From: Escherichia coli
Lineage (GTDB): Bacteria > Pseudomonadota > Gammaproteobacteria > Enterobacterales > Enterobacteriaceae
Strand: one strand, 5' to 3'
Assembly: GCF_003334405.1 (NCBI RefSeq)
Contig: NZ_QOWM01000025.1
DNA length: 39,980 nucleotides
How positions within the stretch are numbered: position 1 is the stretch's first letter; each line of letters begins with the position of its first letter. The notes under the pieces are model-generated. The model did not search any database, was not told the origin of the DNA, and saw only the letters and a program-made list of their open reading frames with translations. Position numbers and translations under genes: made by a program. This document shows positions 10,380 to 16,148 of the stretch, piece by piece.

Positions 10380-11027
10380 ATGACAGCAGAATTTATTATA
10401 CGTCTTATACTCGCGGCAATTGCCTGTGGCGCTATTGGCATGGAAAGGCAAATGCGCGGCAAAGGAGCAGGGTTACGCACACATGTATTAATTGGCATGG
10501 GAAGCGCCCTGTTTATGATTGTTTCGAAATATGGTTTTGCTGACGTGCTGTCTTTAGATCACGTCGGACTCGACCCCAGCCGTATTGCTGCTCAGGTGGT
10601 GACGGGCGTCGGGTTTATCGGTGCAGGTAACATTCTCGTTCGTAACCAAAATATTGTAGGTCTGACGACGGCAGCGGATATCTGGGTGACCGCCGCCATA
10701 GGTATGGTTATTGGCAGCGGTATGTACGAACTGGGTATTTATGGTTCAGTGATGACCTTGTTGGTGCTGGAAGTCTTCCATCAATTAACCTTCCGCCTGA
10801 TGAACAAAAATTACCATTTACAGCTGACATTAGTGAACGGTAATACGGTATCAATGCTCGACTGGTTTAAGCAGCAAAAAATAAAAACTGATTTAGTTTC
10901 GTTGCAGGAAAATGAAGATCATGAAGTGGTCGCCATTGATATCCAGCTTCATGCCACAACGTCGATAGAAGACCTGTTGCGATTATTAAAAGGTATGGCA
11001 GGGGTGAAAGGCGTTTCAATTAGCTAA
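10380..11027 (+). CDS. yhiD: MgtC/SapB-family inner membrane protein (215 aa)
   Basis: Start trimmed to MTAEFIIRLILAAIACGAIGMERQ…; hydrophobic N-terminal domain typical of the MgtC family. Confidence 0.85.
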   Translation: MTAEFIIRLILAAIACGAIGMERQMRGKGAGLRTHVLIGMGSALFMIVSKYGFADVLSLDHVGLDPSRIAAQVVTGVGFIGAGNILVRNQNIVGLTTAADIWVTAAIGMVIGSGMYELGIYGSVMTLLVLEVFHQLTFRLMNKNYHLQLTLVNGNTVSMLDWFKQQKIKTDLVSLQENEDHEVVAIDIQLHATTSIEDLLRLLKGMAGVKGVSIS

Positions 11028-11068
11028 TCTGTGTGGCAGCGTAGCCAGACTCACCGTAAGCCTGAAAT

Positions 11069-11599
11069 TCACACCAGATAATCAATATGCTGATGGCGTA
11101 CCAGCTCATTGATCCGCTTAAGATTGAGGATCATCATGATATTGTGTTTATGGCAGTAGAACGTTTTTAGCGATATTTTCAGTTTCTCCAGAATATCTTC
11201 CGTTGTCATTTGATTCGCAATGCAGCTCAGAACCTGATGTTGCTTGCGCGAAAGTGACACAGCCGCTTCAGGCACAGAGCAGTAACTGCCATTGATGAGT
11301 GCGACAAAATCAATGATAGTGATAGTCCGCGGAACAAAGGTCACCGGCACTTTCCCCAGGCAGCGTTTAATATTAAAGGGGGAGAAAATAATGACATGGA
11401 CAGGTTTTAATCGTTCAATTTGAGTGAGAAAATTAGAATGAAATACATTATTCATTAATGTATCAATAATGACGAAGGCATTCTGATGCAACATTACGTC
11501 GATCTCTTCTTCGTTCTGTATATGAACGACATTACCTTTACTCAGAATGTTTTTCATCGCGGTGAAGAACATCGTATCCCTGGTAATTATAAGAAACAT
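11069..11599 (-). CDS. dctR: LuxR-family transcriptional regulator DctR/YhiF (176 aa)
   Basis: 176-aa ORF with C-terminal LuxR-type HTH; position between yhiD and slp. Confidence 0.85.
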   Translation of the reverse strand: MFLIITRDTMFFTAMKNILSKGNVVHIQNEEEIDVMLHQNAFVIIDTLMNNVFHSNFLTQIERLKPVHVIIFSPFNIKRCLGKVPVTFVPRTITIIDFVALINGSYCSVPEAAVSLSRKQHQVLSCIANQMTTEDILEKLKISLKTFYCHKHNIMMILNLKRINELVRHQHIDYLV

Positions 11600-11754
11600 A
11601 ACCGACTCCTGGTGCGGACATTAACTTTATAATCAGTTTGCCAAAGGTAATTAACAGGACAGGGCTTATAATAATAATAGTTAGCTTACTGTGTATTAAT
11701 TTGATGTAATGCATGATGCAGATGCTGAGAAAGCATCTGCATCTTTCGGTGGTG

Positions 11755-12321
11755 TTATTTGACCAGCTCAGGTGTTACCTGACTCACCGCATTGGTGTAG
11801 TAAGGCGCACCCCAGCCCGGTTCCGGCCAGAATGCACCATAGCCGTAATCCCACAGGTTATAGGTGGTATTAACCACTTCTCTCAAATGCCACACCTGGA
11901 TGCCCTGCATATTCACTTCCAGGAAGTTATACGGGACTTTATTGATAAAGCCAGGTTGTTCACCCTGAATGGTGCCGAGGATGGTAACAAAGTGATTACG
12001 ATAGTTCACTGGATCAAGGAAGCCGCTTTGTCTGGCGAGCAGTCGGCCCTGATAGTTGGCTTCAATATCAGGCTTCGCATAGCTATCCAACGGTAATACA
12101 GCGATTTCTAACAACGTATCCGTTTTGCCATTGATAACGTTGATAACCTTCCCACCAAAGCGCGCTTGTTGACCAACATATAACCCCGGCTGGTTATGAA
12201 CAGCAACAAAACTTTTTTGAATATCAGGTTGGTTATTGCCTTTGATATTTTGCGGAATTGAACTACATGCGGCAAGCAAAAATGAAAGGCTGAGGATGAG
12301 TGCACCTTTTGTCATGTTCAT
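11755..12321 (-). CDS. slp: Starvation-inducible outer membrane lipoprotein Slp (188 aa)
   Basis: ORF track start trimmed to MNMTKGALILSLSFLLAACSS… (lipobox LAAC); length 188 aa. Confidence 0.88.
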   Translation of the reverse strand: MNMTKGALILSLSFLLAACSSIPQNIKGNNQPDIQKSFVAVHNQPGLYVGQQARFGGKVINVINGKTDTLLEIAVLPLDSYAKPDIEANYQGRLLARQSGFLDPVNYRNHFVTILGTIQGEQPGFINKVPYNFLEVNMQGIQVWHLREVVNTTYNLWDYGYGAFWPEPGWGAPYYTNAVSQVTPELVK

Positions 12322-12568
12322 GTTACTATCCTTATCAACAAATATTAAAACCATAATAGATATTTCTTTATAGTTTTCATCTGATTCTGAGGTGATATGC
12401 CTGATAGTAACGTAAACCTGTCTGATGTTTATATCCTTTCTGTTTAGGTGAACTCAGTTAATTTTGGGGCGTGACATGAATATCCATCACCCCATAATAT
12501 AGTGCATTGTTTTAAAAGTACATAAAATCTATTTTTATTCAATGATTATAAAGTGCTAATAATCAATA

Positions 12569-13792
12569 TTATGGTATTATATTCTGGTAATGATTTGATA
12601 AGCGAATTCTTTTACCAGATGGTATTTCTATTTCCACCCCATAATTTATATCTTTTTCATTAGGCAGTGGCCTCTTTAAATAAGGCGTGTGTGACATTTT
12701 TTTTGGGTTAAGCGTCTCGTATTGAAATACTTCGAATTGATATTCAGACATTTCTGCCCATGTTTGAATTTTATTGTATCGGGAGAGTGTCGTAAAGGCT
12801 TTAACTTGCTTATAACATTGTTTTTGGAATTCTTGCTGATATTTTAATATGTCATTGTATGAAAGATTGGTTATCCTGGCCTCTAAAAATTTAATTATTG
12901 CCGAAGCAATTTCCGCTTTTGCTCGTAAAAGGTTGTCATTAATGGTTAATAATGTTGAAAATAAACCTTCGATTTGTTTGTCAAGATATTGTCCATCTTT
13001 ATATAATTTGGGGGTAGGGTGTTCTTTATGTAAAAAAATAGTGTCACCTAAATTTGCGTCAGTGAAATTTATATTAAGTAGATCTTCGAAATAAAACCTT
13101 GACAAGGTTAGAACGAACCCGGACAGGTTCTGTCCTGTCATATTGAAATCAATAAAGTTGGTTCCGGCAAAGACTTTCATCCTGTTTTTATTTTCACTGT
13201 GCTCAATATATAACTTCGTCATTTTTTGATACAGGCTTTGAATATCTTTTATATTAGTTGGTAAGTCAGCTCGTTGTTCAGCAATAAAATTAGTATCTGA
13301 AAACATGGTTTGGACACTGAATGTTATGGGTATTCCCTCTTCTACGCTAATTTTAGTTATGATTGCCTTGTCGGGTTTAGGATTAGCGATAACAATGATT
13401 CGACATTCAGCACTTTTGTTTTTTTCATATCTAATGTTATTAATCTGATTAAGTATTGATTGTGTCTGTTGCGTAAGTTGTGTCGAACTTATCGTTTCAA
13501 TGTTAGTAATAAGACTTACAAGTTGAGCCACAACTTTTGAGTAGTCTGCATTTGTATATGTAGTGTTCGTGTGGCACGCATTAATTTGTTGAAGTTGGTG
13601 TTGCGCTAAATCATATTGATCAGAGATATATCCTTCTCCAGAGAATGTGGAATTAATGGGTTGTTGTTCTTCCCAATTATCGCAAGGCCACTTCGGTGTG
13701 TCTGGCGTTTTAGCATTATCGGTATTTGTTGTGCAGTTATAAATATCGCCGTGATATGTATTTATTATACCTGGGGTAAAGTCAATTGACAT
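12569..13792 (-). CDS. yhiS: Uncharacterised AT-rich protein YhiS, intact 407-aa ORF
   Basis: Single uninterrupted 407-aa ORF between slp and arsC; very AT-rich; no IS5 sequence present. Function unknown. Confidence 0.75.
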
Positions 13793-14271
13793 AAAATTCC
13801 TTATTCATCATTTGTTTTATGCTAAGATGTTTAAATTGGATAATTAGAACAGGAATGGATTTTCTTCTACACACAATAAATGTAATGCGTTATATCTTCC
13901 TGATATAATTACCTTTGATTTCCCTTTTATCTCCACCCGGTAATATTTGTGTGTAAAAAAAGGGTAGTGATAGTATCGTAAAGGAAATCGTTAACAACTA
14001 TCAAAATGCGCTCATTTTAAAAAGTTATTATGTTCTCTGATAGTGTGTGAAGTGATTTTTTTTGTGATGTTTTAGATGTGTAATAATAAAATGGGTTAAG
14101 GTATCTTATAATTATTTAATAATTTGTTGTGTAAACCACTGATAAATCATAATCCAGTACGTCTTTAAACTACTGCGCTGTATCGCTGATAACTAAGCAG
14201 CTCACTGATACACCATGCTGGACGCGATAATTGGAATCTCACGCAGGGAGTACTGTGTAAATAGCAAAATC

Positions 14272-14373
14272 GCCTGATGCGCTACGCCTGTCAGGCCTAC
14301 AAATAACATACTATTCATCGAATTTTCATAACTTTGTAGGTCGGATAAGACGCGCCAGCGTCGCATCCGACAT
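14272..14373. repeat. REP/BIME palindromic unit pair (gcctgatgcgctacgcctgtcaggcctac … gtaggtcggataagacgcgccagcgtcgcatccgac)
   Basis: Canonical enterobacterial REP consensus in head-to-head arrangement in the yhiS-arsC gap. Confidence 0.7.
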
Positions 14374-14420
14374 AAATAAAGCGCACTTTTCTAACAACCT
14401 GTGGGGGGGATATCGCCGCT

Positions 14421-14846
14421 TTATTTCAGGCGCTTACCCGCTTCATCAACCACTTTCTCGCCATCTTCCTTGGAGAATGCGCCTTTTTGCGCATCTGGCA
14501 GAATTTCCAGCACCACTTCTGAAGGGCGGCACAGGCGAGTTCCCAGCGGCGTCACCACAATCGGGCGATTAATCAGAATCGGGTGCTGAAGCATAAAGTC
14601 GATTAACCGATCGTCAGTAAATTTATCTTCCGCAAGGCCCAGCTCCTCATACGGTTCGACGTTTTTACGCAGCAGCGCGCGTACGGAAATCCCCATATCG
14701 GCAATGAGTTTGACCAGTTCATCGCGCGTTGGCGGAGTTTCCAGATAATGGATAATGGTCGGTTCTGTGCCGCTGTTGCGGATCATCTCCAGCGTATTAC
14801 GCGACGTGCCGCAGGCCGGGTTGTGATAAATGGTAATGTTGCTCAT
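14421..14846 (-). CDS. arsC: Arsenate reductase, glutaredoxin-coupled (141 aa)
   Basis: 141-aa ORF MSNITIYHNPACGTSRNTLEMIRN… with the catalytic Cys in the HNPACGTSR motif. Confidence 0.92.
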   Translation of the reverse strand: MSNITIYHNPACGTSRNTLEMIRNSGTEPTIIHYLETPPTRDELVKLIADMGISVRALLRKNVEPYEELGLAEDKFTDDRLIDFMLQHPILINRPIVVTPLGTRLCRPSEVVLEILPDAQKGAFSKEDGEKVVDEAGKRLK

Positions 14847-14858
14847 ATCAGTATCTCA

Positions 14859-16148
14859 TTACAAAGTGAAAGAGAGACGTAGCGCCAGCGCAGCCAGCGT
14901 CACAAACAGCACAGGCAGGGTCATGATAATCCCTGTACGGAAGTAATATCCCCAGCTGATAGTCATATTCTTCTGCGAAAGTACGTGCAGCCAGAGTAGC
15001 GTAGCCAGGCTACCAATTGGGGTAATTTTCGGTCCCAAATCGCAGCCAATCACATTGGCATAAACCATCGCTTCTTTGATAACGCCAGATGCCGTGCTGC
15101 CATCAATGGACAACGCGCCAACCAGTACCGTCGGCATATTGTTCATAATAGAAGAGAGGAAGGCGGTGAGGAATCCGGTGCCGAGCGTCGCGGCCCACAG
15201 GCCGTTATCCGCCAGCACGTTGAGTACGCCAGAAAGATATTCCGTTAATCCGGCATTGCGCAGGCCATAAACCACCAGATACATGCCGAGCGAGAAGATG
15301 ACAATCTGCCAGGGGGCACCGCGCAGGACTTTACCCGTATTAATCGCATGACCGCGTTTAGCGACGACAAATAATATCAGCGCGCCCACAGCTGCAATGG
15401 CGCTCACCGGAATGCCGAGCGGTTCCAGGACGAAAAATCCCACCAGCAGAAGCAGTAAAACAACCCAGCCAGTTTTGAACGTAGCAGGATCTTTGATCGC
15501 TTCTGCGGGAGATTTCAGCAGCGCCATATCGTAGTTCTGCGGAATATCTTTGCGAAAATAGAGATGTAACATCACCAGCGTGGCAACAATCGCGGCGATA
15601 TCCACCGGCACCATCACCGAGGCGTATTCGCGAAAGCCGAGGCCAAAGAAATCAGCGGAAACGATATTCACCAGGTTGGAGACAATAAGCGGCAGGCTGG
15701 CGGTATCGGCAATGAATCCGGCCGCCATCACGAACGCCAGCGTAGTGCCTTTACTGAACCCTAAAGCCAGCAGCATGGCGATGACAATCGGTGTCAAAAT
15801 AAGCGCCGCGCCATCATTGGCAAACAGGGCGGCAACGGCAGCACCGAGCAGGACAATCCAGGTAAACAGCAAGCGACCACGACCATTACCCCAGCGTGAG
15901 ACGTGCAGCGCCGCCCATTCAAAAAAGCCGGACTCATCCAGCAGCAGGCTGATGATAATGACGGCGATAAACGCAGCCGTCGCGTTCCAGACGATATTCC
16001 ACACCACCGGAATATCACCCGGATGGACCACGCCCGTAACTAACGCCAGTACTGCGCCGAGCGTTGCACTCCAGCCGATGCCTAAACCTTTCGGCTGCTA
16101 GATAACCAATACGATGGTCAGGACAAAGATAGCGCCTGCCAGTAACAT
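14859..16148 (-). pseudogene. arsB: Arsenite efflux pump ArsB interrupted by an in-frame amber codon at codon 17 (TAG at 16098-16100); remaining frame intact for 412 codons
   Basis: Minus strand from ATG (16148-16146) reads [51 protein letters not shown]… and continues in frame to the stop at 14859; total 429 codons as for full-length ArsB. The ORF track reports only the 390-aa remainder from GTG at 16031. Confidence 0.7.

Follow-up and report, generated by a model that had tools for sequence, protein, structure and literature searches.

In Escherichia coli K-12, yhiS (b3504, UniProt P37635) is a pseudogene interrupted by IS5 (PMC11677980, PMC8170033, PMC1174868), recorded as yhiS_1 and yhiS_2 with the IS5 copy insH11. 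Two deletions ending at this IS copy are known from K-12 laboratory evolution: the gad acid-fitness island is lost in one (bioRxiv 10.1101/063271), and the pitA side in the other, 18 genes given as "yhiN, pitA... yhiS" (PMC11903035). The locus is also known from chromatin studies in K-12. The arsC/yhiS region is a "promoter island" bound by H-NS in all ChIP studies compared (PMC3661553, Table 1), insH_11/slp is a second H-NS-bound island, and both are associated with predicted foreign genes (PMC3661553). yhiS is among the sites where StpA keeps hairpin-like chromatin without H-NS (bioRxiv 10.64898/2026.02.10.705075). A YdeO site lies upstream of slp, and over-expression of YdeO induced slp-dctR and not yhiS (PMC4222967). 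The E. coli papers found to mention yhiS all deal with K-12, where the gene figures as a pseudogene or as a bystander, and they contain no expression, protein or phenotype data on intact alleles. Because K-12, the source of nearly all E. coli gene functions, has a broken copy, intact YhiS has never been studied.

We describe here yhiS in the window, the whole 39,980-nt stretch of E. coli DNA that was analysed. The locus and the flanking arsC and slp genes are as in K-12, and the gene itself is uninterrupted. Like the xenogeneic genes silenced by H-NS and the genes of "promoter islands" (PMC3661553), yhiS is AT-rich, taxonomically restricted and close to low-GC island genes; unlike typical members of that class, it has no identifiable donor or vehicle and is old enough for cryptic-clade Escherichia to have it as well. 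Our main reading, to which we give a probability of about 85%, is that the window carries the intact, pre-insertion form of an Escherichia-restricted, dispensable accessory gene that has a pentapeptide-repeat-like core, is covered by H-NS and StpA in K-12, is mosaic among strains and is recurrently lost.

The yhiS locus and its empty IS5 site

The features of the locus are as follows (window coordinates).

11755..12321, minus strand: slp
12322..12568, no strand given: intergenic region between yhiS and slp, 29% GC, holding the slp-dctR control region
12569..13792, minus strand: yhiS coding sequence, intact, 407 codons plus stop, ATG start (list of open reading frames)
13028..13177, minus strand: codons 206–255 of yhiS, ten successive pentads, each centred on F, L or M, pentapeptide-repeat-like (period-5 run and profile searches)
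13048..13051: CTAA, unoccupied IS5 target in codon 248, in the pentad region (BLAST against the MG1655p locus and junction sequences)
13793..14200: AT-rich region 5' of yhiS, 29% GC, the counterpart of an H-NS-bound "promoter island" in K-12 (composition and PMC3661553)
13798..13802, minus strand: Shine-Dalgarno sequence AAGGA, 5 nt 5' of the yhiS ATG (tcctt on the plus strand, read directly from the sequence)
14421..14846, minus strand: arsC

The order arsC-yhiS-slp-dctR, with all four genes on the minus strand, matches that of MG1655p and Ec-050-T0. Both its position between the ars genes and slp and its near-identity to the K-12 fragments identify the gene as the orthologue of b3504. The first-pass annotation had described yhiS as a single intact frame of 407 codons, AT-rich like the region upstream of it, with no IS5 between slp and arsC. 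All of this holds: the list of open reading frames contains one minus-strand frame at 12569–13792, BLAST with the MG1655 IS5 found no similarity anywhere in the 39,980 bases, and the GC content is 34% in the frame (GC3 30%) and 29% in both adjoining intergenic regions, compared with 47.6% in the whole window. The span given for the finding, 12322–13792, begins at the first base after slp; its first part, 12322–12568, is the intergenic region between slp and yhiS and lies outside the frame. Calling the protein Asn/Thr/Gln-rich was fair, yet its commonest residue is Ile (10.3%), with Thr (9.1%), Asn (8.6%), Leu (7.6%), Gln (7.1%) and Lys (7.1%) next. A terminator scan found none, and a promoter scan returned 14 promoter-like sites with 10.7 expected; both results are uninformative in AT-rich DNA.

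BLAST against the MG1655p locus and inspection of the junction sequences located the IS5 insertion point at the CTAA in codon 248 (13048–13051), within the ninth pentad of YhiS. CTAA is present there once in the window and is duplicated in MG1655 (a 4-bp target duplication), where the junctions read ...CACCTAA/GGAAGGTGCG... and ...CACCTTCC/CTAAATTTGC, which is IS5 with the duplicated CTAA. In the extracted MG1655p locus the element occupies locus positions 3253–4451, and the annotation gives two yhiS pseudogene fragments ("missing N-terminus" and "missing C-terminus") around an "IS5-like element IS5 family transposase." The K-12 gene thus carries a 1195-bp IS5 and a second CTAA in codon 248, as well as T298 and R324, in contrast to the uninterrupted gene of the window, which does not have the K-12-type yhiS::IS5 allele. 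The K-12 halves are otherwise 100% (nt 1–746) and 99.6% (nt 742–1224) identical to the window sequence. When IS5 and one CTAA were deleted from the MG1655 sequence in silico, a 407-aa frame was restored that differs from that of the window only by A298T and K324R. Flanking sequence is 99.9% identical to MG1655, and positions 13047–14400 are identical to it.

The interval 12300–14400 was matched by megablast across 5,426 complete E. coli genomes. One genome is without the interval altogether, and MG1655-type records match in two pieces spanning an extra 1.2 kb. Of the 5,426 genomes, 352 match a 200-bp probe for the yhiS/IS5 junction over its whole length. The 40 matches listed of these 352 are all laboratory strains, nearly all of them named K-12 derivatives (MG1655, C600, DH5alpha, J53 and similar), together with the laboratory B strain C3029. 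Positions 1–25000 of the window are ~100% identical to wild isolates from humans, pigs and seawater.

The window carries the pre-insertion, empty-site allele of yhiS from a wild E. coli that is a close relative of K-12. IS5 inserted at the CTAA in codon 248 in the K-12 lineage, splitting the gene. The first-pass annotation had given the MG1655 gene as split by IS5, which it is; an uninterrupted 407-codon yhiS in MG1655 was looked for as the contrary case and excluded. Its two deductions, that the window is not MG1655-like at this locus and that its allele is ancestral, agree respectively with the junction counts and matches to wild isolates, and with the restored frame and an orthologue that has the same neighbours in cryptic-clade Escherichia. 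An intact yhiS is nonetheless an ordinary strain polymorphism, already documented and expected in a wild strain. The exact protein of the window is already encoded by 42 public contigs, under the name "hypothetical protein [Escherichia coli]," and the intact YhiS usual in wild strains related to K-12 (RefSeq WP_000020596.1, also 407 aa with the same neighbours and also a "hypothetical protein") differs from it only by A298T.

It is extremely unlikely that the intact frame is an assembly or sequencing artefact, such as an IS copy collapsed in a K-12 derivative. The 99.9% flanking identity to MG1655 is all that speaks for this; the same uninterrupted 2.1-kb interval occurs at 99.9%–100% identity in many independent complete genomes, two substitutions separate the window from MG1655 within yhiS, and CTAA is single-copy, as expected of a site that was never occupied. 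The empty CTAA site tells the window apart from K-12 laboratory derivatives and assigns it to a wild strain, one that matches K-12 almost exactly at this locus (99.9%). Such a strain is also without the IS copy that serves K-12 as an end point of laboratory-evolution deletions.

REP/BIME-like palindromic units lie at 14250–14390, between the arsC stop codon and the AT-rich region upstream of yhiS. The one Rfam match in 11000–15000 was a naRNA4 fragment below threshold, overlying a REP element (14340–14372, minus strand, 31 bits against a gathering threshold of 59.5). In strain S163-2, from a pangolin, an IS1 lies in the intergenic region upstream of yhiS (window ~14197–14204) and the yhiS frame is intact.

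A pentad segment in YhiS

Searches of Pfam, NCBIfam, PADLOC and PHROGs returned no significant match to YhiS (in PADLOC, 0 families at E <= 1), and the Pfam pentapeptide models did not match at E <= 10. Three marginal candidates were rejected. AIPR_N, the sole Pfam line at E <= 10 (E = 0.42), and a tape-measure match (E = 0.057) were dismissed as chance, and isochorismatases, which led a single-sequence search of the PDB at E = 0.08, were gone when a profile was used.

Residues 206–255 form ten consecutive pentads (kvFag tnFid fnMtg qnLsg fvLtl srFyf edLln inFtd anLgd tiFlh). A period-5 run of ten pentads was reached by 7 of 20,000 shuffles of YhiS. N or D directly precedes the centre in six of the ten pentads, and the residues two before the centre (K, T, F, Q, F, S, E, I, A, T) are partly canonical, a small residue being the canonical one. 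In a profile search of 1.84 billion representative proteins, 14 longer proteins (212–1569 aa) matched profile positions ~204–260 only, mostly several times each; the seven that were retrieved all show A(D/N)LXX repeats, and the two that were scanned (P0165 and P0174) are Pfam Pentapeptide proteins. Alignment of YhiS with these two by hhalign gave a probability of 91%–93% over 53–54 columns. With the YhiS profile against the PDB, all five matches were pentapeptide-repeat proteins and all fell on residues 203–256, among them Rfr32 (2f3l, E = 0.0056), TL15 (3n90) and QnrB1 (2xtw). Taken one stretch at a time, matches to pentapeptide proteins fall short of significance for the whole library (best E-value 0.59); only the scores summed over repeats reach it.

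YhiS 206–255 resembles the pentapeptide-repeat proteins (PF00805 clan) in its period of five, its F, L or M centres and the frequent N or D before them. It differs from them in having no Pfam match and an irregular residue two before the centre, and its segment amounts to ~2.5 coils compared with 4–10 or more in characterised pentapeptide-repeat proteins. We regard a short pentapeptide-repeat beta-helix of ~2.5 coils as likely but unproven for this segment, on the strength of its sequence pattern and profile matches. Structure prediction lends the fold no support: AlphaFold2 models of full-length YhiS (18 alleles, mean pLDDT 34) and of residues 176–407 (11 alleles, mean pLDDT 47.5) are too poor to interpret, and in part of the pentad region these low-confidence models show helices in place of a beta-helix. 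For the other ~350 of the 407 residues, no relative could be detected.

No signal peptide was found in YhiS, and its highest 19-residue hydropathy average is 0.9, so that no membrane helix is expected; from these two properties the protein is probably cytoplasmic. Its first 25 residues are polar, with Ser, Thr, Asn and Ile abundant. YhiS would consist of a polar N-terminus and a central ~2.5-turn beta-helix made of the ten pentads, with flanking regions that are predicted helical at low confidence. The pentad segment may act as a protein-binding surface and not as a catalytic site.

Distribution, loss and divergence of yhiS alleles

A search of 5.8 billion proteins found only YhiS of Escherichia and Shigella, almost all 407 aa long and with 64%–92% identity to cluster representatives. 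The profile search of the 1.84 billion representatives found one full-length YhiS cluster and many fragments of it, with named members all from Escherichia or Shigella; a full-length homologue from outside Escherichia (Shigella being included among the sources) was absent from these representatives. Judged by these searches, YhiS is an orphan confined to Escherichia. A scan of GTDB species genomes with N-terminal patterns alone confirmed no copy and carries no weight for the distribution. Cryptic-clade Escherichia have an orthologue of 410 aa, with 64% protein identity and the same neighbours (arsC-yhiS-slp-dctR), so any acquisition of the gene predates the split of that clade from E. coli.

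Searches of plasmids, phages and proteins identified no donor or mobile vehicle for yhiS. There was no phage copy and no true plasmid copy; three "plasmid" records in PLSDB that carry the gene (NZ_CP141089.1, NZ_CP134663.1 and NZ_OL790696.1) are 4.8–4.9 Mb long and are chromosomes filed as plasmids. The gene combines a low GC content with a narrow range (Escherichia and Shigella), as H-NS-silenced acquired genes do. The earlier suggestion that yhiS is horizontally acquired and silenced by H-NS thus fits the 34% GC, the restriction to Escherichia and the ChIP data from K-12, and is left without a donor. Because the upstream region of yhiS is identical to that of K-12, the same binding of H-NS and StpA is expected in the window strain. 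Since the two proteins coat the locus in K-12, yhiS is probably little expressed under laboratory conditions, and its expression in the window strain may likewise be low.

E. coli strains that have the ars genes share the order arsC-yhiS-slp-dctR with cryptic-clade Escherichia, and other strains have a permease and ArsR-SmtB pair in place of arsRBC upstream of yhiS. The place of yhiS is fixed: it lies between the ars genes and slp-dctR, where the acid-fitness island ends. Homology to the window ends near 14111 in many E. coli, and beyond this point arsRBC gives way to a "permease" gene with a divergent ArsR/SmtB regulator, which makes the ars side of yhiS a variable junction. On the other side, the chu haem-uptake cluster (chuS) adjoins dctR in EDL933, 3CM, 1444, UID2309220009, 19KM1831 and the cryptic-clade contig; the window and K-12 have yhiD-hdeBA after dctR (11069–11599), not chuS.

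Five independent lesions of yhiS were identified in 11 sampled genomes.

K-12: IS5 insertion
Strain 1444: 0.93-kb deletion (window 12488..13421) that removes codons ~125–407 and 81 bp past the stop
O157:H7 EDL933: 1-nt deletion giving a 371-aa product without the conserved C-terminus
TBU0218_10-1CC and PSJ-42: separate frameshifts, one in each strain

The 0.93-kb deletion allele was present in 7 of 40 evenly spaced megablast rows, and 1,102 of the 5,426 complete genomes do not reach 80% coverage of 12300–14400. yhiS is dispensable and often lost, and where it survives it is in frame.

For the study of sequence divergence, the locus was taken from ten other genomes and one cryptic-clade Escherichia contig, and dN/dS was obtained from comparisons of divergent alleles.

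yhiS: dN 0.05–0.19, dS 0.10–0.54, dN/dS 0.35–0.55
slp (adjacent): dN 0, dS at most 0.033, ratio not meaningful because dN is 0
dctR and arsC: dN at most 0.025, dS up to 0.26, dN/dS 0.07–0.15 where both are measurable

yhiS is a fast-evolving gene with almost invariant neighbours. It nevertheless has significantly fewer nonsynonymous changes than expected (Fisher p = 2e-7). A random single-base change in this frame gives a stop codon in 5.35% of cases, and the 171 differences between the window and 3CM, among which ~9 stops are expected under neutrality, include none. Constraint is strongest at residues 176–300 (ratio ~0.3) and weakest at residues 126–175 (~0.95); no 50-codon window of yhiS has a pN/pS above 0.95, so positive selection was not detected at this scale. 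Weak purifying selection is the best-supported reading of these patterns, and the first-pass description of the gene as possibly functional gains support from them short of proof.

Along the gene, the identity of one allele to another jumps from block to block between 77% and 100%, a mosaic which indicates that recombination has shuffled segments among divergent yhiS alleles. Allele type is not tied to strain background: of two chu-lacking strains, one is 1% and the other 15% different from the window, and O157:H7 is 5% different.

Readings of function and annotation of yhiS alleles

Frequent loss invites the view that yhiS is a non-functional relic, a silenced foreign frame in neutral decay that has simply not yet been hit in the window strain. 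The five lesions in 11 genomes point that way, as do the 0.93-kb deletion in about one fifth of complete genomes, a dN/dS several-fold above that of the neighbouring genes, the H-NS cover in K-12 (PMC3661553) and the fact that K-12 and O157:H7 live without a full YhiS. Against neutral decay stand a dN/dS significantly below 1 and a complete lack of stops and indels between alleles that differ at 136–171 of 1,224 positions, for which 7–9 stops are expected. It would also not predict a frame of 407–410 aa that persists into cryptic-clade Escherichia at a dS of 0.54, nor a centre more constrained (~0.3) than residues 126–175 (~0.95). We consider a relic unlikely, and note that a dN/dS of 0.4–0.5 together with frequent knock-outs would also fit a gene drifting towards loss.

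The same divergence could be read in the opposite sense, with YhiS as a conflict protein (a single-gene anti-phage defence or a type III secreted host-interaction effector) whose mosaic alleles are under diversifying or balancing selection. Some type III effectors, such as PipB2 and the EspX family, carry pentapeptide repeats, which counts for this reading. Divergence between yhiS alleles is ~ten-fold above that of flanking genes, and allele types ignore strain background (15% between two chu-lacking strains, and only 5% between O157 and the window). Frequent loss of an AT-rich, silenced gene and a polar N-terminus of 25 residues rich in Ser, Thr, Asn and Ile are in keeping with it as well. 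Yet PADLOC gave no match and PHROGs, Pfam and NCBIfam no significant one; type III effector homologues were absent from the Pfam, NCBIfam and PDB searches with YhiS, and the PDB searches gave no similarity to any solved effector. No part of yhiS scanned by windows has a dN/dS above 1, genes that are AT-rich and weakly expressed should show a raised dS in any case, and there are no secretion or defence neighbours. A role in conflict is, on this balance, improbable. It is just as doubtful that YhiS founded an Escherichia-specific, fast-evolving and recombining conflict family built around a very short pentapeptide-repeat core; were it so, the deep allele classes would persist through balancing or diversifying selection, and absence of the antagonist would favour loss.

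We favour a conditionally useful, dispensable accessory gene as the description of how yhiS behaves. In this account weak purifying selection keeps the frame open, recombination shuffles very divergent alleles, and loss recurs. Constraint, mosaic alleles and repeated loss make the gene a reasonable, low-priority candidate for a niche-specific function, and the practical value of an intact copy is small but real.

The pentad core, the mosaic divergence and the repeated inactivation had been overlooked in the first-pass annotation. In EDL933, the 371-aa YhiS is annotated as a normal CDS (WP_001303709.1), although it is missing the strongly conserved C-terminal 36 residues, including INYGVEIE; this 371-aa form also occurs in Shigella dysenteriae (P0053). 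The yhiS of 19KM1831 is given as "frameshifted" in RefSeq, but its aligned 1,224 nt are an uninterrupted frame of 407 codons with no gaps relative to the window, and a possible source of the pseudogene flag is the protein that the annotation pipeline took as its reference.
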